Positions 47,871 through 64,000 of a stretch of 64,000 nt of DNA are shown here, one piece after another. The notes beneath the pieces were generated by a model. The model saw only the letters and a list, made by a program, of their open reading frames with translations. It did not search any database and was not told the origin of the DNA. The stretch covers positions 128,001 to 192,000 of the forward strand of contig CAVQNG010000003.1 in assembly GCA_963713825.1 (NCBI GenBank). Reading direction: 5' to 3'. Both the position numbers and the translations under genes were made by a program. Source of the stretch: an uncultured Acidobacteriota bacterium (GTDB lineage: Bacteria; Acidobacteriota; Thermoanaerobaculia; Multivoradales; JAHEKO01). Position 1 is the stretch's first letter. Each line of letters starts with the position of its first letter.

Positions 47871-49256
47871 TCAAAAGCTGAATATCGCGGACAGAGAGAT
47901 GGTGTCGACGAGCTCCGAGAAATCAATCGCTCCGTCGAGCTGGAAGCGTTCGAAGGCCATCCCGAACCCAACCGCATAGTGCATCTCGTCTCCGACTGGA
48001 CGAAGAAGGGCCTGCGTATATGGATTGTCGCTCGTTGCCCGCAGGACATGGTCCGGATCGAGCCAGGCACCTGCCCGCAGTGCAAGCAGCGGCCTGGATC
48101 CCAGGAACACGTATTCGCAACCGATGTGAACTTCATCGCCATCATCGACAGTTTGATCTTCGAGCTCCATGCTCTTCGCCATATCCGAGTAGGTGATTCG
48201 ATCCCACTCGAGCGCAGCGGTCCAGCGACCGCCAGGCGACCGGAAGGCAACACCTAGGCCGTAGGTATCCGGGTACTTTGCCGTCGGAAAGGCCTCGGAC
48301 TCGATCACGAATCCCGGCGGAAACCCCAGAGAGTTGGCCGGACCGAAGAGAGCGGCGCCCGTGATGTGGATCTCGGGGCCCTCGCGGAACTTGCCCCCCA
48401 GAGTCCAGGCCTGTGAAAATCTCCAAAGAAAACCACCGGTAAACCCCATGTCCTTGTCGTCCTGCGTCAGAGTGGTTGTGGTGACCAAGTTCTCGGGGCC
48501 AAAGGACGTGGGAGTTCCGAGCAGGTCGTAGGGGGCGTCCCACCGGTGAACCGAGCCGATCATCGTCACCTCGGCGTCGTAGAGCACCAGGCCGATACCC
48601 AGGCTCAAGCTGTCCGTGATCCTGACCGCCGATGAAAATCCATAAGAGGTGATCAGGGCATCGGCACTCGCCACCTGATCGAGGTAGCGATCCCGGGTGA
48701 GTCGGCCATCTTTGAAGAGTCCCTGGGTGAAGGCAGTGGATTCGAACTTCAGGTACAGATGGCGATAGAGAGCGAACGACCAACGTCCCCTTGGATAGAC
48801 GAATGAAAGAAAGGAAACACCCGTTGAGTCGTCTGATGAGATCCCGGTCCTCAAGCCGATCTCCGTGTCGAGACCGATGCCGGTCGGAGAACCCTGAACG
48901 TTGCCGCTGATTGTGAAGGGTGTCGAGTAGCTCCAGTGCCGGCCTTCGACAGAGACTTCGGGTTCAGCCAGCTGCACCAGGCCAGCGGGATTCGCGAAAG
49001 CTGCCGTGGCATCGTCGGCCAGCGCCAAGAAGGCTCCGCCGAGACCCAAACTCCGGGCTCCGGGATTGGCCAGGCTGAAGTGTGGCGTGAAGATGAGCTG
49101 GGCGAATTCGTTGGCTCTGACCGCCGGGGCAGAGCAAATCACCAACGCCACCAAGAGCAGGTCCTTCAGCCCTCGAGGGGTCCTCAGCGATCTGGGATAG
49201 TCGACTGGGGCTCGGCTTCCCGCGGCAGGTCTCAACCCTTCCGATAGCTCTGTCAT
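47871..49256 (-). CDS. FadL/OMPP1-like outer-membrane beta-barrel
   Basis: GARSLGLGGAFLALADDATAAFANPAGL N-terminal hatch motif, terminal SAIFSF. ATGA-coupled to the sigma fusion gene. Confidence 0.85.
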   Translation of the reverse strand: MTELSEGLRPAAGSRAPVDYPRSLRTPRGLKDLLLVALVICSAPAVRANEFAQLIFTPHFSLANPGARSLGLGGAFLALADDATAAFANPAGLVQLAEPEVSVEGRHWSYSTPFTISGNVQGSPTGIGLDTEIGLRTGISSDDSTGVSFLSFVYPRGRWSFALYRHLYLKFESTAFTQGLFKDGRLTRDRYLDQVASADALITSYGFSSAVRITDSLSLGIGLVLYDAEVTMIGSVHRWDAPYDLLGTPTSFGPENLVTTTTLTQDDKDMGFTGGFLWRFSQAWTLGGKFREGPEIHITGAALFGPANSLGFPPGFVIESEAFPTAKYPDTYGLGVAFRSPGGRWTAALEWDRITYSDMAKSMELEDQTVDDGDEVHIGCEYVFLGSRPLLALRAGAWLDPDHVLRATSDNPYTQALLRPVGDEMHYAVGFGMAFERFQLDGAIDFSELVDTISLSAIFSF

Positions 49257-50920
49257 GGCTGCACCCTCAGTCTTTCTTTCAGCCACTCGCGTGCCGCGGC
49301 CCAGTCGCTCTCAACGGTCCGTTTCGAGACTCCCAGGAACTGCGCGACCTCCTCGACGGTCATGCCAGCGAAGTACCGCAGCTCGACGACCCTGGCCTGC
49401 CTCTCGTCGAGCGCCGTCAGCTCCTCGATCGCTCGGTCGAGATCGATCATCTGTTCGCTGGACAGCAGCCCTTTGGGGTTGGCGAAAAGCTCTTCTGCCC
49501 ACGAAATCTGGAGCCACTCACCGCCCCGCTTGGCTCGCCCCCGTCCCCGCGCATGATCGATCAGGACCCGCCGCATCATCTTGGCTCCCATGGCGAAGAA
49601 ATGCGTGCGGCCCTGCCACTCCACCCGCGATTGGTCGACCAGCCGCAAGTAAGCCTCGTGGACCAGAGCCGTCGGTTGCAGGGTGTGATTGACCCGCTCC
49701 CGCCCCATGTACCGATGGGCCAGGCCCCGCAGCTCATCGTAGACCCTGGCCAGCAGCGCTTCCGGCGAGGCCCCTGCTCCTTCTGGCTGCCGTTCCATCT
49801 CAATCATGATCTCAGTGAGCTTCTGCGTGAAAGCCGTGGACTCGAGCTTCGACGACTGGGACCTTGGTTCGCTAGAGCTCGAGCCCTCCAGCCAGTGCCG
49901 GATGAAATCATTCCCCAGCCTGACGCGGTGATCCTCCGTTCGGATGACGAATCCCAGGTTCTCCAATCTCAGCAGGCTGCCGTTCAGGCCACCCTCTTCC
50001 GTTCGGAGGCGACTCTCGAGGGTTTCGCGACCCGCTGCCCCTGTCTCACCGAGGGCGCGCAGGACCTCCTGCTCCGTCCTGCTCAACATGCGGAAGTCCA
50101 CTGCGAAGAAATGGCTCACCATCTGGTCGGCCCGAACCCGGTCGAGGACCTCTTCCAGGTCGCCGATCTCCAGATACTTCTTGGCCACGATCTGCAGGAG
50201 GTAGGGGTGATTGCCGCAGGCCTGACAGATCTTCAGAGCCACCTCCGGCAGGAAAGTCGGCCTCGCTGCGCTCGGCAGGTGCTCCTGGAGAACCAGCGCC
50301 AGGGCCTCCTCCTCGGTCAGACCTGCCAGATACAGGGCCGGCGTGAAGCCGTGCAAGAAAGGAGAGGTATCTGCGGACTGCTCCGCCAGCCGCCAGAGCC
50401 GAATCGTCGAGGCCAGTACGAATCGAATGTCTGCCGTCGATTGCACCGCCCTTCGGAGCTTGGACAGCAGAGACCGATCCTTGCTCTGCAAATCGATCAA
50501 CTCCTCGGCCTCGTCGCACAGCAACAGCATCCTTCTGCCAGTGCCGCGAACTTGCCTACGCAGCCGAGCCAGGGAATCGAAGAGATCCTCTGCATCCAGG
50601 GATGACACCGAGACGCCGACTTCTGCCCAGCGCTCTTCCGAGTCCAGTAGGGCATCGTGGAAGCTCAGGTGCAGTTCCCTCGGCTCGGTGGCCCCCTGCA
50701 GATCCCAGAACAACGGCAGGTAGTCCAGATCCGGCGACGCGGTAGCGAGCTGCTCCAGTTGCTTCAAGACAGAGGTCTTGCCAACACGCCTAGTCCCCAG
50801 CAACCAGAGGCTGTCCCGTTGCCCATCCAGGATCTCTGCCAGCTGGGCACGACGCCCATAGAAGCGATCACCTCGCACCCATTGGCCCACAACGTAGGGC
50901 AGCAGGGGCGGACGAATCAC
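49253..50920 (-). CDS. STAND-like ATPase fused to a C-terminal ECF sigma factor (ECF43-like)
   Basis: GTRRVGKTS, LLLCDEAE, GNHPYLLQ, then VYDELR.LA, HTLQPTALVHEAYLRL, MRRVLIDHAR, VVELRYFAGM, TVESDW. GTGA-coupled to the upstream gene. Confidence 0.9.
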   Translation of the reverse strand: MIRPPLLPYVVGQWVRGDRFYGRRAQLAEILDGQRDSLWLLGTRRVGKTSVLKQLEQLATASPDLDYLPLFWDLQGATEPRELHLSFHDALLDSEERWAEVGVSVSSLDAEDLFDSLARLRRQVRGTGRRMLLLCDEAEELIDLQSKDRSLLSKLRRAVQSTADIRFVLASTIRLWRLAEQSADTSPFLHGFTPALYLAGLTEEEALALVLQEHLPSAARPTFLPEVALKICQACGNHPYLLQIVAKKYLEIGDLEEVLDRVRADQMVSHFFAVDFRMLSRTEQEVLRALGETGAAGRETLESRLRTEEGGLNGSLLRLENLGFVIRTEDHRVRLGNDFIRHWLEGSSSSEPRSQSSKLESTAFTQKLTEIMIEMERQPEGAGASPEALLARVYDELRGLAHRYMGRERVNHTLQPTALVHEAYLRLVDQSRVEWQGRTHFFAMGAKMMRRVLIDHARGRGRAKRGGEWLQISWAEELFANPKGLLSSEQMIDLDRAIEELTALDERQARVVELRYFAGMTVEEVAQFLGVSKRTVESDWAAAREWLKERLRVQP

Positions 50921-53349
50921 GCCACCTCCGGACGACCGATCGCTTCCACATCGTCTACGGTGATCGTCTCTGCACCGTTCTCGTAGGCCCGATTCACGAG
51001 GGCAATGCAGAGCTTCTGGATCAGATAAGGCCGCAGGCCCGTGAGCTCGATGATCCGTGACACGACGCCCTCCTCGAGCTTCAGCAGGTTGGCGATCGGC
51101 CGCTCGATCAAGGCTCGAGCATCTTCGACCCGGAAGGGCAGAACCTGGATCTCTTCGAAGAAGTTGTACCAGGGGCTGCCTTCTCGCTCCCATTGCTTCT
51201 TGATCTCCACACCGGAGACCACGGCGACGAGATTCTCAGCGAAGCTCTTCATGAATAGGCTCCGCAACCGCTGGTTGATCCTCGGGTCGTAGTCGTTCAG
51301 CTCATCGACCTCGTCGATCAACAGCACGAGCTTGACCTGCTTGCCGCTGCCCTCCGCCAAGCGCTGGATCACGGCGCGCAGATCGCGAACAAAGTCGCGG
51401 TGGGAGTACTCGACTTCGACGTTCAGGGAGCGCGATGGCGACAAGTCACCTAGATGAATTTCCAGGTCACTGAAGACATCGTCAGCCAGGGTTGCAAAGA
51501 ACCTGGTTTCCGGAGTGCCCTGCAAGTCGACGTATACGGGAAAGAAATCGTAGGTTGGATCGTCCAGCTCCCGCAATCGCTTCTTGAGATGGTGTTGGAT
51601 CGAAGTCTTGCCGATCCGCCGCTCACCGTAGAGCAGCAGGCTGTTGTTGTGGACGGTCTGGAGTATGCGATCGATGAGCCGGTCCCGTCCGAAGAAGAGG
51701 CCCTCGTCCAGCACCGGGGCACCTGCCACATAGGGATTGAGTCGACGGTGCCGGCGTCGAGCACGGCGATTTCGCCGAGCCACGACGAACCCGAGCGCCA
51801 GTGCTGCGACAACCGTGGCCATCGCTGCCGCGAGACGCGGAGACCGGAACCAGGGGCGGACAAGAGCCACGGCGTACTCACTGCTGGACGCGAGATCCTC
51901 CGCATCGGTAGCCACGACCCGGAACGTCTCGGGCCCGCCCCCGAGCACCGTGTCGACCCGGAATTCCGTGACGTAGGAGTCGCCAACTTGCTGATGGCTC
52001 GTGACTGCCTCCAGGTTCGAGCCCTTGCCATCGAAGCACTCGATGTCGACTGGCGAGTTGTCGATGATGACGCCACTGAGGCGAAACCCCGCATCGCGAA
52101 CCACTTGCACCTGGGAACCATCCTCCTGCGTCTGCCGAAAGTCGGCAAAACGGATAGCCGGAGGGATGTTGCCGGCGGCCCTGCCGAGCAGCACTCGGCT
52201 GAGCTGCTGGTAAGAGCGCGCAACGATCTCCATAGCCTGACTGTTGCCGGGCTCCAGAGCCAGCGCTCGATTCGCGGCGGACAGGGCACTCTCGAACCGG
52301 CGAGCCACGAGCTCGCTTTCGGCAGTCGCCAGTTCGGCCGCCAGGATCTGCCGGCTGGCCAGCTCTTCCTCCGCCAATGCTCGCGCTCCGACTAGACGAG
52401 ACTCGATGGCCTTGGCCTCCTCACCTCCGGCCTGCATGGCAATGACGGTCTGCAGTCTGTTCAGGGCCGCATCCAGTTGCCCGGCAGCCTCGAGTCCACG
52501 AACCGCCTCGAGCTCCTGCACGACGAACTCGGCCTGGGTCTTCTGCTGCCGCTGGGACTCGAGCTCGGTACGAAGGCGCTGCTGAGTGTCCTCCAACAGC
52601 CCCGAGATCTCCGGGTCGCCCGGCATCAGCTCCGCAGCTTCTCGAAAGCGGCCCGCCGCTGCCGCGTAGGACCCGGCGCTCAGAAGGGCTCGGCCTTCCG
52701 TCACCAGGAGCGCGGCACGAGTTTCTGCTCGAGCCTCCTGCTCCCGTTGTCTGGCTTCACCCAGCAGGGTCGCCATGAGGCTGGTCGCCTCGGGATCCTC
52801 GGGTGCCACCGCAAGCCCTCGACCCAGGGCTGTCATTGCCTGATCGGTTCTTCCTGCCGACCGCAGGTCCCGAGCTTCCCGAAGACTCTCCGCCAGAATC
52901 TGCCGGATTCGATCCTGATCCTCTGCCCAGCGGCTTTCGAGCCCCTGGACTGCTCTGGCACGGAGCGCTTCGAGCTCTTGGAACGAGCTCTGCGAACCCT
53001 CGATCGCACCCAGCCTCTCCTCGGTATCGAATGCCCGGAGCGCCGCCTCGTGCTGGCCGAGCGCAAGATAGGCCGTACCGAGCTTGAGATACGGCAGATA
53101 GTCGGTCGTGCGCATCCCATAGGTGCGCACCCTCACTCCCGAGTCACCCCGCCGCTGAATCGCCTGATTCAGCTCTTCGACCGCTTCTTCCCAGCGCTCG
53201 GCGCTGAGAGCCTCTTCGGCCCTTTGATAGTGCTGATACCAGAGGTCCGCCAGCAGGGGGCTGACTGCCACGAGGTTGGCGAGAAGGTAGATGCGAAGCG
53301 CCGGGGCGATTCGCACTCCAAGGATGCTGCGATGGGAGGATCCTGACAT
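50917..53349 (-). CDS. Single-pass membrane receptor-like protein: periplasmic TPR and beta domain, TM helix, cytoplasmic STAND-like ATPase
   Basis: Signal peptide, YLPYLKLG TPRs, beta-rich segment, TM at ~51781-51835 followed by RRNRRARRRHRR, then NPYVAG..FFGR, GERRIGKTS, LLIDEVD, PYLIQ. Start approximate. Confidence 0.87.
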   Translation of the reverse strand: MSGSSHRSILGVRIAPALRIYLLANLVAVSPLLADLWYQHYQRAEEALSAERWEEAVEELNQAIQRRGDSGVRVRTYGMRTTDYLPYLKLGTAYLALGQHEAALRAFDTEERLGAIEGSQSSFQELEALRARAVQGLESRWAEDQDRIRQILAESLREARDLRSAGRTDQAMTALGRGLAVAPEDPEATSLMATLLGEARQREQEARAETRAALLVTEGRALLSAGSYAAAAGRFREAAELMPGDPEISGLLEDTQQRLRTELESQRQQKTQAEFVVQELEAVRGLEAAGQLDAALNRLQTVIAMQAGGEEAKAIESRLVGARALAEEELASRQILAAELATAESELVARRFESALSAANRALALEPGNSQAMEIVARSYQQLSRVLLGRAAGNIPPAIRFADFRQTQEDGSQVQVVRDAGFRLSGVIIDNSPVDIECFDGKGSNLEAVTSHQQVGDSYVTEFRVDTVLGGGPETFRVVATDAEDLASSSEYAVALVRPWFRSPRLAAAMATVVAALALGFVVARRNRRARRRHRRLNPYVAGAPVLDEGLFFGRDRLIDRILQTVHNNSLLLYGERRIGKTSIQHHLKKRLRELDDPTYDFFPVYVDLQGTPETRFFATLADDVFSDLEIHLGDLSPSRSLNVEVEYSHRDFVRDLRAVIQRLAEGSGKQVKLVLLIDEVDELNDYDPRINQRLRSLFMKSFAENLVAVVSGVEIKKQWEREGSPWYNFFEEIQVLPFRVEDARALIERPIANLLKLEEGVVSRIIELTGLRPYLIQKLCIALVNRAYENGAETITVDDVEAIGRPEVA

Positions 53350-53613
53350 CGACTTTAACGTCCAGGCCCCATGCCGAAACGATCCTACTCCCAAAATCGA
53401 CTCCGAGATCTTCGTCTTCCCACTTCGTGGCCAGATCCGACCGAAGCATCGCACCGACGGCTCTCCACTTCGGTCTCTTTGCCTTCGAGACTCTAACGCG
53501 ATGGAAACGGCAAGACTCCGCAGCCTGCCCTAGCTTTTCAGCCCTGGGATTTCAGACCAGATAGACTCATTTGCCTGTTGCCCCATTCATTACTTGCCCT
53601 ACCGAGGCCAATC

Positions 53614-54510: not shown

Positions 54511-54731
54511 ACCTCGACCCGAGAAGCCACCCGAAAACCCTCGGCGTCCTCCGCGTGAGTCGTCGCCCCGTCGTCCTGCAATACCACCCTTCAGGGTGGC
54601 GTCGAATTGCAGCCCCTTTTGGTAAGCTTTTGGGAGTCCGTATCGGCGAGCTCCTCGCGAGTCGGTACGGGCAGCTTCATCGGAGTTCCGACTTGCTCCA
54701 GCGCGGCCTATCGACGTGCATCTGGGAGAAG

Positions 54732-56654
54732 GTGATCTTGACTGGATCTCATCCGTCACGGGTTTGTATCCGGCGCCTGCTGCAGAGTCTCGCCGGGTCG
54801 CTACCCGTCTTTCTTCTGGCTGTCTTTGCTCCCGGGACATCAGCCGCCTCCCTTTCCCAGCCTGTGGTCTTCTGCAGCCTTCCCGCTGACAAGGCACCGG
54901 CTAGCGGTGTTGCAGATGGAATGCTGCCATCCGATTACGGCCAGGGTGCTTCGCTGATGGTTCTACAGCCCGACGGCAGCACAGTGCGCTTGGCAGGTGA
55001 CTTCGCGAGTGCCTGCGACCCTGACGTTTCCTTCGATGGAGAGCACATCCTGTTCGCGGGCCAGAAGAACCCGGGAGATTCCTGGAACATCTGGGAGATG
55101 AGCAACGACGGCACCGGGGTGCGGCAGATCACGCATGAAGCGCTCGACTGCCGTCGGCCCATCTACCTCTCGACGTTCTACACCATCACATCGTCCGAGC
55201 CCTGGTACACGATCCTGTTCGAGCGGCAGGACGGCGTCTTGAACGAAGCGGGCACAGCCCCCGGAACCAGCCTCTACACGGTTCGCCTCGACGGCTCCGA
55301 GTTGCGGCGCATCACGTTTCACCCTGGCAACGACCGCACGCCCTTCCTGATGCAAGACGGTCTTCTGCTCTTCTCCGGATGGAGGATGCTATCGGATCCT
55401 CGCTTTCCCACCGGAAGGATCGGGCTCTACGGAGTCCAGACCGACGGTATCGACTATGCCTCTTTCGGCGGTCTGCAGGGATCGAGAATCCAGCACATGC
55501 CGACCCTGACGACAGACGGGCTCGTGGTCTTTGTCGAGGCTGACCAGGTGGACTGGGACGGCGCAGGCCGTCTGGCCGCCGTCCGAGCGCAGCGCCCCCA
55601 CCTCTCCTACTCCTCTCTGACCGACGAAGACCAGGGTCTGTTCCATTCTCCATCGCCATTGGCGGATGGCAGCGTGCTCGTGTCCCATCGTTCCGCAACA
55701 GCCGACAGCATTTTCGGACTCAGCAGGTTCTGGCCTGACAGCGGACGGAGGGAGGAGGTCGTCTACCTGCCCGGAGCCCACATCCTTCACGCCAGGCTGA
55801 TGGCTCCGCGGCCGGAGCCAGACGGCCGCTCCAGCACGGTGCGACCCGAGTCACCGACGGGCAAGCTCTACTGTCTGGACGTCTACGAGAGCGACACCGA
55901 CATTGCATCGCTCGAGCGAGGCACGATCGAGCGAGTACGGGTCATCGAAGGGGTGGCGACCGGGCAGAGTACGACCCCGGTCGCCAGACGGCTCCTGGGC
56001 GAAGCACCGGTAGAGGACGACGGATCGTTCCACATCGACCTGCCTGCCGATCTACCCGTCGAGCTACAACTCCTCGACGAAAGCGGCCAGGCCCTGGCGA
56101 GCTGCGATTGGATCTGGGTCAAGAACCGCGAGTACCGTGGTTGCATCGGCTGTCATGAGGATCCCGAGTTGACCCCAGAGAACCGCTTCGTACAAGCTGC
56201 GGCCCGACCAGCCAATCAGCTGACGCTGCCACCCGACAGGCGCCGCAGCGTGACCTTTCGACAGCATGTCCTGCCTCTCCTCCAGGCTTACTGCAGCGAC
56301 TGCCACGGTGAAGCTGGTGGAGTTCTGCCCTTTGGTTCACTGGCCGATGAGGCCGGTGCAATGGGGGCCTACGATGCGCTGACCGCCGGACGCGATGGCG
56401 AAGGGTCGGCCCGTCGCCCCCTGGTCACTCCTGGCAGCGCGACCACGAGTCCTTTGATCTGGCAACTCTTCGGTCGGGACACCTCGCAGACGCCGGACGC
56501 TGGAACGAACACGATGACTCTGATCGCGCCTGGACACCTCGATCTGCTGAGCGACGAAGAGCGCCGGGTCTTCACGGAGTGGATCGACCTCGGGGCCCAG
56601 TGGGACCTGCCGCCGGAGAGCTCTGTAGACCAACAAGGAGATGCCAGGCCATGA
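54732..56654 (+). CDS. Hydrazine synthase alpha-subunit-like diheme protein
   Basis: Signal peptide, PD40-like propeller (DFASACDPDVSFDG, IWEM..DG..RQIT), middle domain (VEDDGSF...PADLP..LQLLD...W......RGCIGCH), C-terminal CSDCH and EWIDLGAQWD. Start approximate. Confidence 0.82.
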   Translation: MILTGSHPSRVCIRRLLQSLAGSLPVFLLAVFAPGTSAASLSQPVVFCSLPADKAPASGVADGMLPSDYGQGASLMVLQPDGSTVRLAGDFASACDPDVSFDGEHILFAGQKNPGDSWNIWEMSNDGTGVRQITHEALDCRRPIYLSTFYTITSSEPWYTILFERQDGVLNEAGTAPGTSLYTVRLDGSELRRITFHPGNDRTPFLMQDGLLLFSGWRMLSDPRFPTGRIGLYGVQTDGIDYASFGGLQGSRIQHMPTLTTDGLVVFVEADQVDWDGAGRLAAVRAQRPHLSYSSLTDEDQGLFHSPSPLADGSVLVSHRSATADSIFGLSRFWPDSGRREEVVYLPGAHILHARLMAPRPEPDGRSSTVRPESPTGKLYCLDVYESDTDIASLERGTIERVRVIEGVATGQSTTPVARRLLGEAPVEDDGSFHIDLPADLPVELQLLDESGQALASCDWIWVKNREYRGCIGCHEDPELTPENRFVQAAARPANQLTLPPDRRRSVTFRQHVLPLLQAYCSDCHGEAGGVLPFGSLADEAGAMGAYDALTAGRDGEGSARRPLVTPGSATTSPLIWQLFGRDTSQTPDAGTNTMTLIAPGHLDLLSDEERRVFTEWIDLGAQWDLPPESSVDQQGDARP

Positions 56655-58276
56655 GAGCGCCTGAATCGTGTTTCTTGCTCCTGATCTTTCTGGCAAGTCC
56701 GCTTGTAAGCCAGTCGACCACGCCGTACTTCACCGACATCACGGAGATGGCTGGGCTCCGGTTCCAGCACAGCTTCGGTGACAGCGAGCTCAGTAATATC
56801 GTGGAGGGTACCGGTCCGGGCGCCGTCTTCTTCGACTACGACAACGACGACTACCCCGACATCTATCTCCTCAACGGCACATGGACACCGGAAGTCAACG
56901 ACAACCGCAGCCGCAATCTGCGCGGCCAGCTCAGTAACGCCCTCTACCGCAACAACCGCGACGGCACCTTCACCGATGTCACCGCTGCTGCCGGAGTCGG
57001 AGATCAAGGGTTTGGTATGGGCGGCTCGGCAGCGGACTTCGATCTCGACGGAGATCTCGATCTCTACGTGCTGAACTACGGTGCCAACGTCTTCTATCGC
57101 AACGATGGAGATGGCACCTTCACCGACGTCACCGAACAGGCCGGACTGTCTGATCCGCTTTGGAGCGTCTCGGCACCCTGGCTCGACTACGACGGTGACG
57201 GAGACCTGGACCTCTACGTCGCCAACTATCTAGAGTACGACGAAGGGGCTTTTCGGAGCTTCTACGCCGCGCAGGGCTATCCCGGGCCCCTGGCTTACAA
57301 GGGACAACCCGATCATCTCTATCGCAACGATGGAGATGGCACCTTCACCGATGTCACCGAAGAGGCTGGCGTGCTCGATCCCGACGGTCGTGCCATGAGC
57401 GCCATTGCGGTGGATCTCGACCAGGATGGCGACCAGGACATCTATGTGGCCAACGACGCCATGCCTAGCGCCTTCTGGGTCAACGACGGTCACGGGAACT
57501 TCCAGGACAGAGCCCTGCTCCAGGGAATCGCCTTTGGAGAGGGAGGGCAAGGGGCCTCGTCCATGGGGCCCGTGGTCGGCGATATCGATCGCAACGGACT
57601 GATGGACATCTGGATACCCGACATGGCCTATGGCTGCCTGCTGAGCCAGAGGGAGGAGGGGCTGTTCGCTGACGTCACTGCGGAGACCAACCTGGCGGTG
57701 ATCTGCGGTCAGTACACGGGATGGGGCAGCGGCTTGATCGATTTCGACAACGACGGCTACCTGGACGTCTTCGTGGCCAACGGCAATGCCCATCATCTCT
57801 ACACCGAAGAGGATGTCCTGGCTCACAACGACGGCACCGGTCACTACGTGGATGTGGCCAAGGATGGCGGCGCCTACTTCGAGAGCAAATCCGTCGGCCG
57901 AGGAGCGGCATTCGCCGACTTCGACAACGATGGTGATCTGGACATCCTGGTCGCCAACCTCGGCGAGTCTCCGAAGTTGTTGAGGAACGACACGGAGAGC
58001 GGCAACCACTGGCTGACAGTGGTACCGCTGCTCTCCGACAGCGAGACGGTGGCTATCGGATCCACCGTGACGGTGACAGTCGGGCAGAGGCGCTCCATCC
58101 ACCCGGTGCACGGTGTCTTCGGCTATCTCTCTACCAGCGATCCCCGCCCCCATTTCGGTCTCGGAACCGCTGAAGTGGCCGACAGAGTAGAGATCGTCTG
58201 GCCCGACGGAGAGCAGCAAGTCCTCGAGTCCGTTCCTGCCAATCAGATACTGGAGGTGGTGCAAGGTGCGAAATAG
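56651..58276 (+). CDS. CRTAC1-like FG-GAP repeat / ASPIC-UnbV protein
   Basis: Repeated D.D.DG..D.YV.N and LYRN.GDGTFTDVT motifs, GRGAAFAD, HFGLG....RVEIVWPDG. ATGA overlap. Confidence 0.92.
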   Translation: MRAPESCFLLLIFLASPLVSQSTTPYFTDITEMAGLRFQHSFGDSELSNIVEGTGPGAVFFDYDNDDYPDIYLLNGTWTPEVNDNRSRNLRGQLSNALYRNNRDGTFTDVTAAAGVGDQGFGMGGSAADFDLDGDLDLYVLNYGANVFYRNDGDGTFTDVTEQAGLSDPLWSVSAPWLDYDGDGDLDLYVANYLEYDEGAFRSFYAAQGYPGPLAYKGQPDHLYRNDGDGTFTDVTEEAGVLDPDGRAMSAIAVDLDQDGDQDIYVANDAMPSAFWVNDGHGNFQDRALLQGIAFGEGGQGASSMGPVVGDIDRNGLMDIWIPDMAYGCLLSQREEGLFADVTAETNLAVICGQYTGWGSGLIDFDNDGYLDVFVANGNAHHLYTEEDVLAHNDGTGHYVDVAKDGGAYFESKSVGRGAAFADFDNDGDLDILVANLGESPKLLRNDTESGNHWLTVVPLLSDSETVAIGSTVTVTVGQRRSIHPVHGVFGYLSTSDPRPHFGLGTAEVADRVEIVWPDGEQQVLESVPANQILEVVQGAK

Positions 58277-61148
58277 ATGGCGTCGACCCGTCCTTCTCGT
58301 GGGTCTGGCCTGTCTGGTGGCCATGGCATGGGGAGTTTCCTTGCCCGCTCAACCCAGGGAGCCTGTGTATGTGGGCGTGAAGGCCTGCGCTGAGTGTCAT
58401 TCGGGGCCCGAAGCGGGGCACCAGTTCAGCATCTGGAGACTGTCGCCTCACGCCAAGGCCTACGCCACGCTGTCCATGCCGGAGTCCAAGGAGATCGCTC
58501 GACTCAGCGGTATTCCCGAGGCTCCACACACAGCCAGGGTCTGTCTCGGCTGTCACACTACCGGTGCCGACGCAGAAGAATGGGAGAAAGACGACAAGTT
58601 CCTTCTCGAAGACGGAGTCCAGTGCGAAACCTGCCATGGCCCCGGCAGCGAGTACATGGATGAAGCCGTGATGCGAAATCGGCAGCTGGCCATGGAACGG
58701 GGTCTGAAGATGCCCTCTGGCCGCACCTGCATGATCTGCCACGGACCCAAAGGTTCACACGAGGCCGTACTCTCTGGCGAGCCCTACGATCTCGAGAAGG
58801 CTCTCGAGACCATTGCCCACCCCCGGCCCGACAGCCCGCCGATCGAAGCGCCAAGCACGAGTAGCGAGACCGAAGCCCTTCTCGGTTCCAGCGAGCACCG
58901 CTTCGCCGGCGTGATGAGCTGTGCGAAGTGTCACTCCGGCCCGATGATGGGCTTCCAGTTCAGCAGATGGCGCATGGGGCCTCATGCTCGGGCCTACGCG
59001 GTGCTCGGCACCCCGGCCGCCAAGGAAATGGCTAGACGCTCCGGAGTAAATGGCGAGCCCCAACAGAGCTATGCCTGCTTGCGATGCCACGCCACCGGCG
59101 CAGGCCATGATGCTGCCAGCTTCGAGCCGAGGTTCAACCAGGCGGACGGCGTTCAGTGCGAGAGCTGCCACGGACCGGGAGCGGACTACTCTCCCGAGGC
59201 CATCATGCTCGATCGGCCGGCAGCCAAAGCCGCCGGTCTTCGCGAGCAAGGGCCCGAGGTCTGTGCGGACTGCCACGAGCAGGGTCACGCCGGTGGCCCC
59301 TTCGACTACGAGGCGGCGCTTGCGGCCATCGCGCATCCCAGAGCACCAGCGAAGGTCGTCGACCAAGAGCCGGTCTACAAGACTCCGATCAATCTTGCCC
59401 TGACACCGGACGGCTCCGAGCTCTGGGTAGCCTGCGAGGCTTCCTCTTCGACGGTCATCATCGATACCACCTCACACGAGGTCTTGGAAGAGATCGCGGT
59501 AGGAGGCCAACCACACGACGTGGCATTCCACCCGGATGGCACGACGGCCTACATCACGAATCGCCTCGACGACACTCTTTCTGTAGTCGATGTGGCGACC
59601 CGCGAGATCGTGGCTACCGTCGAAGTCGGAGACGAACCCCACGGCGTGCTGACGGACGCTTCAGGCGGACGGATCTACGTTCTCAACAGCTCGCAGGACA
59701 GTGTCTCGGTGATCGATGCCGAGACCCTAGAGGAGACCAGACGCCTCACCACGTCGAGAGTCCCCTGGTCCCTGGCCCTCTCGCCGGACGGCGAAAAAAT
59801 CTTCGTCACGAATACCCTGTCCGGCTTTGTGCCACCGCGCACACCACCGATGTCCGAAGTCACGGTCATCGACGCCCGGCGTGGAGCGGTCGAGGATCGA
59901 TTCACCGTCCCGGCCGCCAATCTCCTGCAGGGAGTCGCCTGGCACCCGAGCGGCGAGTTCGCGATGGTGACGCTCAACCGCACCAAGAACCTGGTTCCCA
60001 TGACCCGATTGCTCCAGGGATGGACGATCACCAACGGTGTGGGCATCGTGTGGAGAGACGGACGGATCGACCAGGTCCTCTTGGATCAGCCCGACATCGC
60101 CTTCCCAGACGCCGCCGATGTGACCATGACCTCCGACGGACGACTGGCCCTGGTCACCAGCAGCGGCTCGGATCGCGTGGCGATCGTAGACCTCGAAAAG
60201 CTCTTGTCGGTGTTGGAGGCAGCGTCTCCCGAAGAGCGAGAGAAGGTCATCCCGAATCATCTGGCCAAATCCACTGAGTTTGTCGAGACCTTCATAAAGA
60301 CTGGCTTGAGTCCAAGGGGAATCACGTTATCGGCCGACGACAAAACCGCCTATGTCGCCAACACACTCGATGACACGGTAACGGTGATCGACCTGGAGCG
60401 CTTCGAAGCCGTGAAAGAGATCGATCTCGGTGGCCCTGAGGTGATCTCACAGACGAGGTGGGGCGAGCAGCTCTTCCACAGCGCCGACATCACCTTCCGG
60501 CGCCAGTTCTCCTGTCATTCCTGTCACCCGGATGGCCACGTCGACGGCATCACCTACGACATCGAGCCGGATGGAATCGGCACCGATCCGGTCGACAACC
60601 GAACCCTACGAGGCATTTTCGATACCGCTCCATTCAAATGGTCGGGGCTCAACCCCAGCCTGCAGCGACAGTGTGGGCCACGGTTGGCGGTGTTCTTCAC
60701 GCGGATCGCGCCCTTCACGCCCGAGGAGCTCGAGGCCTTGGAACTCTATATCACCACCATTCCTCGTCCTCCCAATCGTTATCGGGCCCTTGGGGCACCC
60801 TTGACCGAGGCGCAGCGTCTCGGCAAGGCCGTCTACGAACGCACCCACACCAACGGCGGCCGGCTGATTTCGCCCGATGGACGTTGCATCAATTGCCACC
60901 CGGGGCCGCTCTATACCGATCGTGGCAAACACGACGTCGGGACCCAATCTCCGCTCGACCGCGAGGACACCTTCGACACTCCGCACCTGACCAACATCTA
61001 CGACTCGGCACCCTATCTCCACGACGGCACGGCCTTCAGCCTCGAGGAGATCTGGACGCGATTCAACACCTATGATCAACACGGTGTCACCAACGATTTG
61101 ACGAAGGACCAACTCAACCATCTGATCGAGTATTTGAAGACCCTCTGA
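58266..61148 (+). CDS. Decaheme fusion: two c554-like tetraheme domains, YVTN beta-propeller (HZS-beta-like) and CcP/MauG-like diheme domain (HZS-gamma-like)
   Basis: Ten CxxCH motifs (8 N-terminal; CHSCH and CINCH C-terminal), GVQCE.CHGPG twice, YITN/YVAN blades, FDTP.L......PYLHDG, LIEYLKTL. Confidence 0.87.
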   Translation: MRNRWRRPVLLVGLACLVAMAWGVSLPAQPREPVYVGVKACAECHSGPEAGHQFSIWRLSPHAKAYATLSMPESKEIARLSGIPEAPHTARVCLGCHTTGADAEEWEKDDKFLLEDGVQCETCHGPGSEYMDEAVMRNRQLAMERGLKMPSGRTCMICHGPKGSHEAVLSGEPYDLEKALETIAHPRPDSPPIEAPSTSSETEALLGSSEHRFAGVMSCAKCHSGPMMGFQFSRWRMGPHARAYAVLGTPAAKEMARRSGVNGEPQQSYACLRCHATGAGHDAASFEPRFNQADGVQCESCHGPGADYSPEAIMLDRPAAKAAGLREQGPEVCADCHEQGHAGGPFDYEAALAAIAHPRAPAKVVDQEPVYKTPINLALTPDGSELWVACEASSSTVIIDTTSHEVLEEIAVGGQPHDVAFHPDGTTAYITNRLDDTLSVVDVATREIVATVEVGDEPHGVLTDASGGRIYVLNSSQDSVSVIDAETLEETRRLTTSRVPWSLALSPDGEKIFVTNTLSGFVPPRTPPMSEVTVIDARRGAVEDRFTVPAANLLQGVAWHPSGEFAMVTLNRTKNLVPMTRLLQGWTITNGVGIVWRDGRIDQVLLDQPDIAFPDAADVTMTSDGRLALVTSSGSDRVAIVDLEKLLSVLEAASPEEREKVIPNHLAKSTEFVETFIKTGLSPRGITLSADDKTAYVANTLDDTVTVIDLERFEAVKEIDLGGPEVISQTRWGEQLFHSADITFRRQFSCHSCHPDGHVDGITYDIEPDGIGTDPVDNRTLRGIFDTAPFKWSGLNPSLQRQCGPRLAVFFTRIAPFTPEELEALELYITTIPRPPNRYRALGAPLTEAQRLGKAVYERTHTNGGRLISPDGRCINCHPGPLYTDRGKHDVGTQSPLDREDTFDTPHLTNIYDSAPYLHDGTAFSLEEIWTRFNTYDQHGVTNDLTKDQLNHLIEYLKTL

Positions 61149-61160
61149 GGAGGGGAAGAG

Positions 61161-62375
61161 ATGAACCGGTTCCCAGCAACGCTACTCACCATCGTCATCG
61201 CAGTACTACCGCAGGCTGGATTGGCGGCCGCTAGCGAAGCATCCGCCACTGAGCAGTCGACGGTTACAGATCTCGACCTACCTTTCGTCTACACCGATTG
61301 GCAGCAGTACTCGGTCGAGGACGGGCTTCCCAACGATCACATCTTCACCGTCGAAGTCGACGGCCCCTGGGTCTGGATCGGGACCGAGGACGGTCTGGCT
61401 CGACTCGACAAACGCACTGGAGCGATTCGTTCCTGGAAGGAAGAAGACGGCCTACCGTGGCGGGTCGTATCCGCGCTGGCCGTTCAGCCGGAAACTGGTG
61501 AGCTGTGGTTGGGTATGTTCGGAGGCGGCCTGGCCCGTTTCAGCGGTGGCCGCTTCGACCACTACCACCAACTCAACAGTGGTTTGGTCAATGATGTGGT
61601 CTATGGAGTCTGCATCGAGAACGAGAATATCTGGGCTGCCACCACCGCTGGTGCCAGTCGCTACAACACCCGCACTGGCGAGTGGACCATCTACACAGAG
61701 AAGAACGCCCCCATGGAGGAGATCTGGAACTACGGCTGCAGCTACGCCGACGGCAAGGTCTACCTGGGAGTCTGGGGCAGTGGAGTCCTCGAGTTCGACA
61801 TCGAGACCGAGCAATGGAAAGACTACCTCGACCCGGACGGCGAGATGGAGATCGATCTTTACCGCGACGACGGCATCGTGCACGTCATCACGACCGGCGT
61901 GAGCTATGTCGAGAAGACCCTTTGGGTGACGACCTACTTCGGCGCCTCCCGCTACGACGGTCGTCACTGGCGAGGCTATTTCAAAAAGGACAGCGGTACG
62001 CCGAGTGATTTCCACAACGCCGTCAAGGCGAGAAGTGCCAACGAAGCCTGGTTCTCCACCGACAAGGGACTCGCGCAGGTAGCCGATTTCCCCACAGATA
62101 CCTGGGTGGTCTACACAACCGACCACGCCTCGGGCACCGGCCAGGCGGTCATCACTCGAGGCGAGCGGGTCCTCGAAACCCGCACTATCCCTCCGAACAT
62201 CCCTCACAACTACGTCCTGTGGACCGCGATCGACGGCAACGATCTGTGGATCGGTACTTCGAAAGGACTGGCTCACGCCAGGGGCGAGGACTACTTCCCC
62301 GGCCTGCGCCGAGCTGCGGGACAAGCTGCGACCAGCGATCCCGAGGGACTACCAACGAATCGAGGCGGATCATGA
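61161..62375 (+). CDS. Secreted beta-propeller of two-component-regulator-propeller type
   Basis: Signal peptide; repeated GLP/VND.(I/V)...WIGT..GL blades. Confidence 0.82.
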   Translation: MNRFPATLLTIVIAVLPQAGLAAASEASATEQSTVTDLDLPFVYTDWQQYSVEDGLPNDHIFTVEVDGPWVWIGTEDGLARLDKRTGAIRSWKEEDGLPWRVVSALAVQPETGELWLGMFGGGLARFSGGRFDHYHQLNSGLVNDVVYGVCIENENIWAATTAGASRYNTRTGEWTIYTEKNAPMEEIWNYGCSYADGKVYLGVWGSGVLEFDIETEQWKDYLDPDGEMEIDLYRDDGIVHVITTGVSYVEKTLWVTTYFGASRYDGRHWRGYFKKDSGTPSDFHNAVKARSANEAWFSTDKGLAQVADFPTDTWVVYTTDHASGTGQAVITRGERVLETRTIPPNIPHNYVLWTAIDGNDLWIGTSKGLAHARGEDYFPGLRRAAGQAATSDPEGLPTNRGGS

Positions 62376-63862
62376 AGAGCATCCTCAAGGACAAGTTGCT
62401 GATCACCTGTCTGAGCTCGGCTCTGATCATCGTGCCCTCCTTGGCCTGGACCGAGGAAGCGGCCGCAACCGACGATGCCGAGCCCCTGGACACCGAGACC
62501 ATACTCGAGGCCATCGATGTCGATCCCTACGAAGTGCCTGACCTGCCTCTGAAGAAGAATACGAACTACGGCGCCTCGGCCGTCGACGTCGAGCCTTTCG
62601 GTCACGTGGAGCCCTACTTCGAGCACTTCCTCGAGCAGATGGAGTACACGGGGCCGGGTAGGGCCAAGCCCGAACCCGAGGACATCGATACCGTCAAGAT
62701 CGGTTTCCTTGGACCGATAGTGCCGACCGTCTCGGTGGCCACGGGCGGTATGAGTCACGAGGAGCCACTGGGCATCGCCATGCTCCGCGGCACGAGGATG
62801 GCCATCGAAGAGGCGAATGCCGCCGGGGGTTACCAGCCTCGAGACATCCCCTTCGAGCTGGTGGTGCACAACGACAACGGCCTGTGGGGGGCCTCGGGCA
62901 ACGAGATCATCGATCTGGCCTATAAGGAGAACGTCTGGGCCATCCTGGGAACCATCGATGGCGCCAACTCGCATATCGCGATCCGGGTGGCCCTGAAAGC
63001 CGAGATCCCGATGATCAACACAGGGGATACGGATCCCACCTTCATCGAGACGAACATCCCCTGGGTCATCAGGACCATCGGGGACGATCGGCAGCAGAAC
63101 TACATGCTGCTCGACTATCTCTATCGCAAACAGGGATACGAGCGGGTGGCCATCATTCGAGCCAGTAATCGGTACGGTCGCTTCGGAGTCCGGGAGATCA
63201 AGGACGGCAGCCGGCGTCTCGGCTACCCGGTCGTCATCGAGATGGCCTACCCGGTGGGTGACGATGACTTCTCCCTGCAGATCGATCGGATCGCCGAGGC
63301 CGAGCCCCAGGCGATCGTCCATTGGGGCGATGCCGTGGACGGTGCCCGGATCCTGACTCAGATTCGCGAACGGGGCATGGACCAGCCCTTCTTCTGCTCG
63401 GACCGCTGTGCTTCCGACGAGTTCGTGAATCTGGCCGGCGAGCTCGCGCAGGAGGTCTACTCCACGTATCCGTGGAACCCCCACCGCGAGGATCCCAACC
63501 TGGCACGCTTTCGTCAGGAATTCGAAAAGCGCTATGGCGTCGAGCCCGACACCTACGCCGCACACGCCTATGACGGGGCGAACCTCCTGATCTGGGCCAT
63601 CCAGAACGCCGGCCTCAACCGTGCCAAGATCCGCGATCTCCTGGCCTATCGTAGCGAGCCCTGGCCGGGTGTCACCGGGGACATTCCGCTCAACGCCGCT
63701 CTGGATGACGGCGGAGAGGTCTTCATGACGCGTTGGGACGGCGAGGGATGGAGCTACTACTCCCGCGAGGACCTGGGCGTTCCGAGCGGCCTCATCGCAC
63801 CCGAGACGCGGCAGGAGCGCGAGCCTCTCTCCGCCTCGAGCGTCGGAGGAGGTACGCAATAG
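62372..63862 (+). CDS. Periplasmic LIV/ANF-type ligand-binding protein
   Basis: VKIGFLGP, G..MAIEEANAAGG, NVWAILG, DFS.QI, YAAHAYDG, GVTG. ATGA overlap. Confidence 0.88.
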   Translation: MKSILKDKLLITCLSSALIIVPSLAWTEEAAATDDAEPLDTETILEAIDVDPYEVPDLPLKKNTNYGASAVDVEPFGHVEPYFEHFLEQMEYTGPGRAKPEPEDIDTVKIGFLGPIVPTVSVATGGMSHEEPLGIAMLRGTRMAIEEANAAGGYQPRDIPFELVVHNDNGLWGASGNEIIDLAYKENVWAILGTIDGANSHIAIRVALKAEIPMINTGDTDPTFIETNIPWVIRTIGDDRQQNYMLLDYLYRKQGYERVAIIRASNRYGRFGVREIKDGSRRLGYPVVIEMAYPVGDDDFSLQIDRIAEAEPQAIVHWGDAVDGARILTQIRERGMDQPFFCSDRCASDEFVNLAGELAQEVYSTYPWNPHREDPNLARFRQEFEKRYGVEPDTYAAHAYDGANLLIWAIQNAGLNRAKIRDLLAYRSEPWPGVTGDIPLNAALDDGGEVFMTRWDGEGWSYYSREDLGVPSGLIAPETRQEREPLSASSVGGGTQ

Positions 63863-64000
63863 CCCACCAGATCTTTTCCACGGGAATCCTGGTGCTGGTC
63901 CTCCTTGCACGCGCTCTCCACGGTCAGGCTCCACCTCCAGAGGAACGTCCGGACGACGAGCCGTACCACGATTTCCGACTTCAGCCGCTGGAGTATCTCG
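63859..64000 (+). CDS. 5' end of a second LIV-type binding-protein paralog with apparent ATA start, truncated by the window
   Basis: GGAGGAGG SD, then an open frame (M)AHQIFSTGILVLVLLARALHG...EPYHDFRLQPLEYL resembling EPYFEHFLEQMEYTG of the upstream gene. Confidence 0.6.
   Translation, partial: MAHQIFSTGILVLVLLARALHGQAPPPEERPDDEPYHDFRLQPLEYL

Follow-up and report, generated by a model that had tools for sequence, protein, structure and literature searches.

Genes related to those of hydrazine synthase (HZS), the enzyme of anaerobic ammonium oxidation (anammox), have been interpreted in conflicting ways. In the relevant passages of Dalcin Martins et al. (2023; PMC10732223), the hzsA-like and fused hzsBC-like genes of Phycisphaerae UBA1845 were weighed either as novel anammox or as part of a broader enzyme family. 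Parts of a later study (PMC11828985) count such genes as anammox markers and extend anammox to ten phyla, whereas Hagglund et al. (2025, Genome Biol Evol; PMC12758564) reject this reading in the sections concerned and divide the HZS homologues into four clades. Clade I matches the locus described below in its architecture and in which residues are lost or kept; in those sections it was judged not to be anammox, and no function was assigned to it. Its carriers named there include Syntrophobacter fumaroxidans, Paludibaculum fermentans, Aquisphaera giovannonii, Thermogutta terrifontis, Novipirellula artificiosorum and Opitutus terrae. We found no tested function for these HZS homologues in the literature, and PMC11705231 has nothing on the enzyme. 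Here we analyze a six-gene cassette that starts at position 54738 of a 64,000-nucleotide stretch (the window) from an uncultured Acidobacteriota bacterium (contig CAVQNG010000003.1, positions 128,001 to 192,000).

The cassette is a new member of the clade I HZS-homologue cassette. We consider it, with a probability of about 0.65, to encode a redox enzyme of the periplasm that exchanges several electrons with a small nitrogenous compound and is not a hydrazine synthase. The non-anammox result at the level of the family is already in print. To this the window adds a conserved propeller gene, the replacement of gamma-Asp168 by Leu or Arg, an equivalent of alpha-His772 in one subclade, and a genome with terminal oxidases in which no hydrazine dehydrogenase was found.

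Architecture of the cassette and its kinship with HZS

The six genes are co-directional:

54738..56654, + strand: HzsA-like two-haem protein (open reading frame (ORF) 54555..56654; likely start TTG at 54738, 638 amino acids)
56651..58276, + strand: CRTAC1-like FG-GAP/ASPIC-UnbV propeller protein (ORF 56579..58276; Pfam FG-GAP_3 6.4e-45, UnbV_ASPIC 1.6e-21)
58266..61148, + strand: ten-haem beta-gamma fusion protein of 960 amino acids (from the ORF, Pfam, NCBIfam and 5c2v alignments)
61161..62375, + strand: exported propeller of 404 amino acids, the fourth cassette gene (4a2l and 3v9f, both at 1.4e-20)
62372..63862, + strand: binding protein 1, an orphan periplasmic binding protein of the amino-acid/amide type (Peripla_BP_6, Pfam 4.7e-42)
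63892..64000, + strand: 5' part of binding protein 2 (Peripla_BP_6, Pfam 6.5e-38 in L017:2734-4101); the gene crosses the window end and runs to about position 65100, and its start codon is uncertain

The alpha-like (HzsA-like) protein consists of a TolB-like propeller, an HZS_alpha middle domain (Pfam 1.5e-19) and a C-terminal cytochrome c domain. Its sole match among all PDB sequences was chain A of the Kuenenia HZS structure 5C2V (2e-40, pairwise), the structure on which our entire comparison with anammox is based. A profile built from 42 relatives matched the same chain at 8.3e-83, and a Foldseek search with the structure model placed 5c2v_D at the top (1.1e-31). The beta-gamma protein was compared in the same way. 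It matched chains B and C of 5c2v, with values of 6e-38 and 1.9e-19 in the pairwise search against all PDB sequences and of 4.3e-78 and 1.3e-49 for the profile of 42 relatives. Judged by these alignments, the two proteins are true, distant homologues of all three HZS subunits. The distance is evident from the NCBIfam hydrazine-synthase models (NF052339-NF052342), none of which was reached at its curated cut-off: the scores were 166.5 bits against 800 for alpha, 213 against 1250 for beta-gamma, 163.9 against 560 for beta and 85.7 against 625 for gamma.

The layout is that described for clade I: the alpha-like gene comes first, followed by a CRTAC1 FG-GAP gene and then by the fused beta-gamma gene, with two binding-protein genes downstream. 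The fusion carries eight additional haem motifs at its N-terminus, arranged in two c554 domains. Genes of the same kind, with hzsA-like immediately preceding fused hzsBC-like, are reported in PMC10732223 and PMC11828985 for Planctomycetota, Acidobacteriota and Verrucomicrobiota. In contrast to Kuenenia HZS, the cassette has beta and gamma in one protein with eight more haems, a reversed gene order and four extra conserved genes. The fourth-gene propeller and the fate of gamma-Asp168 are not mentioned in sections 7 and 8 and part 1 of section 12 of PMC12758564.

The six genes are translationally coupled; four of the five junctions overlap or are 12 bases wide. The ATG of the CRTAC1-like gene overlaps the stop codon of the alpha-like gene (ATGA), and the same overlap (ATGA) joins binding protein 1 to the propeller gene. 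The beta-gamma gene shares 11 bases with the CRTAC1-like gene, and the propeller gene starts 12 bases after the beta-gamma gene, preceded by GGAGG. The likely TTG start of the alpha-like gene has GGGAGAAGG upstream and gives a signal-like N-terminus, whereas the alternative start, the ATG of a database copy, would give none. A hydrophobic N-terminal stretch was found on five of the six cassette proteins by a simple calculation of our own rather than by a signal-peptide predictor, the start of binding protein 2 being uncertain. Across the cassette we counted 12 CxxCH motifs, ten of them in the beta-gamma protein.

Of the accessory proteins, the propeller encoded at 61161..62375 is related to sensor propellers that belong to hybrid two-component systems of Bacteroides. 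It ranks among the best conserved parts of the cassette, with a mean column identity of 60% over 26 sequences and invariant stretches such as EKNxPMEEIWNY. The PDB relatives of binding protein 1 are branched-chain amino-acid binders.

Haem sites and catalytic residues

Conservation and synteny were counted over the best 80 of at least 635 loci, that is, over the closest relatives in named genomes; for the alpha-like protein, 61 of 67 ORFs were used, six shorter than 500 amino acids having been dropped. The numbering of HZS residues (Ser590/Tyr591, the His587-Zn site, Cys303, Cys165 and Asp168) follows passages of PMC12758564 and PMC12607021. Positions in the 5c2v chains differ from the published numbers by 27 (alpha) and 39 (gamma), and with these offsets the haem Cys and His fall on His587, Cys102, Cys105 and His106. 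The domains and sites of the two proteins are as follows:

56142..56168, + strand: haem alpha-I-like motif CIGCHEDPE (codons 530-538 of ORF 54555..56654)
56292..56306, + strand: haem alpha-II-like motif CSDCH (from the translation; invariant in the A1 alignment)
56529..56549, + strand: PGHLDLL with His661 (aligned with Kuenenia alpha-His772)
58362..59345, + strand: eight-haem region of two c554-like modules (Pfam Cytochrome_C554 5.6e-32 in two stretches; 1bvb 4.2e-7)
59382..60392, + strand: HzsB-like YVTN seven-blade propeller (5c2v_B residues 14-347, 6e-38)
59985..60020, + strand: beta loop KNLVPMTRLLQG (codons 574-585; corresponds to the HZS beta tunnel loop)
60453..61145, + strand: HzsC-like dihaem domain of the CCP/MauG superfamily (5c2v_C, 1.9e-19)
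60513..60527, + strand: haem gamma-I-like motif CHSCH (aligned to Kuenenia SCASCH; 80/80)
60639..60641, + strand: Trp792 (PFKWSG against Kuenenia PFRHEG, the HZS gamma-His144 position; 80/80)
60657..60683, + strand: SLQRQCGPR (Cys803, codon TGT at 60672-60674, the gamma-Cys165 position)
60885..60899, + strand: haem gamma-II-like motif CINCH (from the translation and the profile alignment; 80/80)
61074..61085, + strand: DQHG with His939 (aligned to Kuenenia DMHG; His939 80/80)

An earlier interpretation made from the letters of the window (the sequence-only reading) had proposed remodelled active sites on an HZS scaffold. The motifs it quoted stand in the sequence where it placed them, including the Cys codon at 60672. 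It gave 56140..60690 as the span of these motifs, which holds for all but DQHG, since DQHG at 61074-61085 belongs to the same gene but lies beyond 60690. The Kuenenia sequences that it gave could be verified in part, as CSGCHY, SLDRVCGRD and KNWLPVCEAENG are seen in the 5c2v alignments.

The retained features are concentrated in the gamma-like domain. Cys803 pairs with Kuenenia gamma-Cys165 in both the pairwise and the profile alignment (SLDRVCGRD against SLQRQCGPR) and is present in all 80 orthologues, in agreement with the proposal that the third Cys is kept. A third haem thioether through Cys803 is predicted. Within 20 shorter relatives of 32-43% identity, the same column holds Cys in 11, Asp in four, Val in three, and Glu and Ala in one each. 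The positions Gly804, Arg806, Leu807, Trp792, His939 and Pro578-Met579-Thr580 are also invariant (each 80/80), as are both gamma haem motifs, while Arg581 is found in 79 and Gln584 in 78 of the 80. His939 likewise bears out the suggested retention of a His for haem gamma-II: it lies in DQHG, aligned with DMHG, and is likely, from the alignment, to be the distal ligand of the gamma-II-like haem.

The residues next to these sites have changed. In HZS, gamma-Asp168 is the proposed proton donor for the reduction of nitric oxide (NO), as set out in passages of PMC12607021. It pairs with Arg806 in the pairwise and with Leu807 in the profile alignment, and both residues are invariant. We prefer Leu807, because this placement pairs Arg with Arg and Phe with Phe. 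In the beta loop, the alignment of Kuenenia KNWLPVCEAENG with KNLVPMTRLLQG puts Arg581 and Leu583 in the place of the two Glu. Kuenenia CEAEN thus faces TRLLQ, and the conserved beta-loop Glu is absent. At the gamma-His144 position, Trp792 replaces His; according to the sections of PMC12758564 on this residue, Trp is also found there in cytochrome c peroxidase (CCP) and MauG.

The alpha-I-like haem motif is nearly invariant: Cys530, Gly532, Cys533, His534 and Asp536 are conserved in 61 of 61 ORFs, Glu535 in 60 and Glu538 in 59. The alpha-II motif is similarly maintained (Cys580 and Cys583 in 59, His584 in 58 of 61, the remainder being gaps). Kuenenia CSGCH(Y) is aligned with CIGCH(E), and the alignments end at or just past the His. 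No Tyr follows the alpha-I His within 14 residues; the offset of Tyr591, four residues on, is occupied by Glu538. The alignment published in PMC12758564 has, in the part shown, a two-residue gap at Ser590 and Tyr591. Cys303 of the Kuenenia zinc site pairs with Phe304 (pairwise) or Leu307 (profile), so neither the Tyr591 ligand of haem alpha-I nor the His587/Cys303 zinc site is found in the alpha-like protein. As a side observation, where the window has Thr317 (in HMPTL), 47 of 61 orthologues have Cys; at Gly305, 16 of 61 do.

For haem alpha-II, the sequence-only reading named the His of PGHLDLL as a retained distal ligand. Indeed, His661 pairs in the pairwise alignment with Kuenenia alpha-His772, the distal ligand of that haem, but its conservation is narrow. 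It is kept in one of the 61 alpha-like ORFs, with 56 gaps in the column, and occurs in nine of 21 displayed rows, namely those at least 56% identical to the window (the window and eight relatives). Judging from this alignment, the His772 equivalent is a trait of the window's Thermoanaerobaculia subclade only. In this respect the subclade differs from clade I as characterized in the relevant sections of PMC12758564, according to which alpha-His772 is absent.

Taken together, the cassette shares with Kuenenia HZS its homology over three subunits, four core haem motifs, the third Cys of gamma-I and the loop inserted in the beta-propeller. It lacks the alpha-I Tyr ligand and Zn site, Asp168 and the loop Glu, and Trp stands in for His144. 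The loss of Tyr591, Cys303 and the loop Glu, the retention of Cys165 and the Trp at His144 are the pattern of clade I. The claim that Tyr, Zn-Cys, Asp and Glu are replaced was therefore upheld: none occupies a catalytic position in either type of alignment, and neither alignment restores an equivalent Tyr, Asp or Glu. The motifs themselves do not arise by chance, most of their positions being near-invariant across the 80 beta-gamma proteins and the 61 alpha-like ORFs. These replacements suggest a reaction different from that of HZS.

The gamma-like domain also belongs to the CCP/MauG superfamily, with which it shares the two-haem fold, a Trp between the haems and weak but significant matches. 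Pfam CCP_MauG reached 26.8 bits against a cut-off of 25.6, a weak match in which no single stretch passes, and among PDB profiles the domain matched CCP 1iqc at 2.2e-13 and MbnH 6e1c at 8e-14. A peroxide-reducing complex, that is, a cytochrome c peroxidase with its own electron wire for periplasmic detoxification or respiration, would fit these matches, the CCP-type Trp in place of His144 and an aerobic host. However, HZS gamma (1.3e-49) is far closer than any peroxidase, and in known peroxidases there is no part to play for the third thioether Cys, an alpha-like subunit, a tunnel loop or the two binding proteins. We regard this function as unlikely, and as less likely than the reduction of an N-oxide discussed below.

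Members of the superfamily differ from the gamma-like domain in further respects. The distal ligand of the second haem in CCP and MauG is Met or Tyr, whereas His939 is the likely ligand here; moreover, the gamma-like domain has the third thioether Cys and is fused to a propeller and eight haems. The same kinship would allow a maturase of the MauG/MbnH type that modifies a residue of the CRTAC1-like protein, the propeller or a binding protein. The Trp between the haems and the strict co-inheritance with highly conserved exported partners speak for such a role. For a maturase, however, ten further haems and a two-subunit scaffold of the HZS type would be superfluous, and we know of no MauG-type enzyme with a fused electron wire. 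This makes a maturase very improbable.

Host, habitat and distribution

The genome to which the window belongs comprises 5.42 Mb in 38 contigs, is 96% complete and contains one copy of the alpha-like gene. For this gene, the nearest named relatives are two metagenome-assembled genomes (MAGs) of Thermoanaerobaculia, with identities of 86% and 74%. In a quick tree built from the window and 72 of the 80 loci (those with an ORF of at least 900 amino acids), the window grouped with these two MAGs, with a support of 100 in the Shimodaira-Hasegawa-like approximate likelihood ratio test (SH-aLRT). When 301 genomes of the phylum were sampled, 104 matched the beta-gamma model at 1e-10, mostly with plain propellers (the unpublished G049 and G024 are included), and 18, the window's own genome among them, reached 3.4e-30 or better. 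The HZS cut-off was exceeded in none of the 301.

The host is aerobic, and two haem-copper oxidases are encoded in its genome. Hydrazine dehydrogenase was not found in this 96%-complete genome, the best score being 71 bits against a cut-off of 900. Three octahaem proteins of the hydroxylamine oxidoreductase (HAO) family are present (C3:103391-104977, or L020; one on C5; and C3:1777643-1778881), all of them far below the hydrazine dehydrogenase cut-off. The L020 protein (528 amino acids), encoded some 23 kb before the window begins, has Ignicoccus 4qo5 as its best solved relative (4e-108). NirK was not found in the genome; nor was NirS, for which the search control was likewise silent.

These data bear on the possibility that the cassette is a working hydrazine synthase and its host a cryptic anammox bacterium outside Brocadiia. 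Homologues of three subunits in one operon, with the third Cys and four core haem motifs kept, speak in its favour, and parts of PMC11828985 argue in this sense for the HzsA-like genes of ten phyla including Acidobacteriota. On the other hand, Tyr591, Cys303, Asp168 and the loop Glu are missing in every alignment, the alpha and beta-gamma models score 166 and 213 bits where 800 and 1250 are required, the genome has no detectable hydrazine dehydrogenase (71 against 900 bits) and encodes two haem-copper oxidases, and the genes run opposite to those of anammox bacteria as given in sections of PMC12758564, which also reject the anammox reading. Unlike in anammox bacteria, the enzyme would operate in an aerobe lacking a recognizable hydrazine dehydrogenase. 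The cassette almost certainly neither encodes a hydrazine synthase nor makes hydrazine. The earlier proposal of the same scaffold without hydrazine synthesis is hence supported by the homology, the lost residues, the content of the genome and the clade I sections of PMC12758564. While anammox was considered for the genes discussed in the corresponding parts of PMC10732223 and PMC11828985, residues and genome argue against it for the window cassette.

Near-identical DNA covering at least half of the sampled words was detected in 19 sequencing runs; with an RNA run included, the matches come from 10 studies. The source samples were salt-marsh, marine and freshwater sediment. The host is probably a sediment bacterium of the Thermoanaerobaculia. 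In one metatranscriptome, contigs of 322, 317 and 250 nucleotides fell on the alpha-like, beta-gamma and propeller genes, with 3, 3 and 1 differences, respectively. This is a weak hint of transcription.

The cassette is widespread. Searches returned more than 3000 proteins for beta-gamma, with roughly 70% identity across phyla, and 1500 proteins for the alpha-like query, and a scan of species genomes gave the at least 635 encoding loci mentioned above. Among the best 80 loci, 50 belong to Planctomycetota, 24 to Acidobacteriota, three to Verrucomicrobiota and one to Anaerolineales. Gene order was scored in related loci with enough flank for the gene in question (loci with room). The expected order was found for the alpha-like gene in 63 of 63 such loci, for the CRTAC1-like gene in 67 of 67, for the fourth-gene propeller in 71 of 71, for binding protein 1 in 60 of 60 and for binding protein 2 in 49 of 52 (missing in L034, L037 and L042). 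No further universally conserved flanking gene was found in the flanks of these loci.

A second type of cluster, at about 39% identity, contains the same six components in the order CRTAC1-like, one-haem alpha-like, three-motif beta-gamma, propeller and two binding proteins. L101 and L104 are of this type, the L101 genome being from the same family as the window's. L105 has the same order, except that in our ORF selection the + strand propeller ORF was lacking at its place after the beta-gamma gene and before those for the binding proteins. In this single instance (L105 3079-5003, G054), the eight-haem module is a separate upstream gene, and a regulator of the Rrf2 family (the family of NsrR and IscR) is encoded directly upstream of the CRTAC1-like gene.

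Some neighbours recur at a subset of loci. Over L021-L100, a convergent gene for a tetratricopeptide repeat (TPR) protein and a second FG-GAP/ASPIC protein gene lie downstream in 24 of 45 loci with room. RidA/YjgF-like cytoplasmic genes stand beside the cassette in 10 loci; three of the products have 373-376 amino acids and look chorismatase-like. A gene for 3-deoxy-D-arabino-heptulosonate 7-phosphate (DAHP) synthase is found near the cassette in L043, L071, L077 and L105, and a C-N hydrolase gene in three loci.

Proposed function and neighbouring genes

For the periplasmic redox enzyme proposed above, the most likely reaction in our view is the reduction of an N-oxide such as NO, nitrite or hydroxylamine, although this assignment is tentative and stands well below even odds. 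The alpha-like and beta-gamma proteins would form an HZS-like periplasmic complex, with catalysis at the gamma-I-like haem tethered by the Cys803 thioether. Electrons would pass between this haem and the eight c554-like haems via Trp792 and the gamma-II-like haem. In HZS, haem gamma-II receives its electrons from a separate cytochrome, as stated in passages of PMC12607021; the fused eight-haem region may be a built-in wire that replaces this donor. The alpha-I-like haem would be an ordinary His-ligated haem beside the invariant acidic cluster HEDxE, and the binding proteins probably serve to deliver or detect a further ligand, one of the amine type.

Several points weigh against this proposal. 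The loss of Asp168 argues against a simple retention of the HZS gamma-I chemistry, and two conserved amino-acid-type binding proteins are unexpected for a plain NO or peroxide reductase; it is chiefly for these two observations that a simple NO reductase fails to account. Electrons could flow in either direction; c554 of Nitrosomonas takes its electrons from an oxidising enzyme. The structure models are of low quality precisely where the haems would bind. For the alpha-like protein, the mean predicted local distance difference test (pLDDT) score is 70.9, with values below 50 at residues 470-479; for the beta-gamma protein it is 62.5, with values below 50 at 740-816 and 877-942 in the gamma-like domain and in the loop 574-588, and above 90 in the HzsB-like propeller. 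Pocket geometry and the distance between Cys and haem are consequently read from the sequence alignment. Furthermore, parts of PMC11828985 (Nature Communications 2025) count HzsA-like genes, those of Acidobacteriota included, as anammox potential in ten phyla.

The uncertain direction leaves room for an enzyme that oxidises a small molecule or an amine at the modified haem, with the c554-like modules carrying the electrons on to the respiratory chain. Hydroxylamine oxidoreductase systems are characterized by additional covalent bonds to haem and by c554 partners. The terminal oxidases of the host, the conserved amino-acid-type binding proteins and the RidA-like (10 loci) and C-N hydrolase (three loci) genes adjoining the cassette would also suit an oxidising role. 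Against it, the nearest characterized relatives of the catalytic domain are reductive, namely CCP and, according to passages of PMC12607021, HZS gamma. In addition, the RidA-like and C-N hydrolase genes flank a minority of the loci and are cytoplasmic. We consider an oxidising enzyme doubtful.

The cassette could also couple an N-oxide reduced at the tethered haem with an amine or amino acid delivered by the binding proteins, yielding an N-N or N-C product other than hydrazine and keeping the two-site tunnel logic of HZS. This is a long shot, but if true it would make the cassette a nitrogen-cycle enzyme that is widespread in bacteria of soils and sediments and has so far escaped notice. The locus supports the view taken in the clade I sections of PMC12758564, since a near-complete genome of an aerobic Acidobacteriota bacterium carries homologues of three HZS subunits, has none of the hydrazine-making residues and yielded no hydrazine dehydrogenase. 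As the cassette is both common (at least 635 loci) and strongly conserved, its chemistry is a real gap in periplasmic redox biology, one that has already been recognised in print.

A scan of the locus for promoters and terminators gave nothing above shuffled sequences, and a sigma-54-like string upstream of the cassette was rejected for its wrong spacing. Downstream, the cassette is followed by an unrelated DEAD-box helicase gene, and an M55 aminopeptidase is encoded upstream. Two further large genes lie upstream on the - strand, at 50917-53454 and 49253-51193; they encode a protein with TPR and AAA-ATPase domains and a fusion of an AAA domain with an extracytoplasmic function (ECF) sigma factor.

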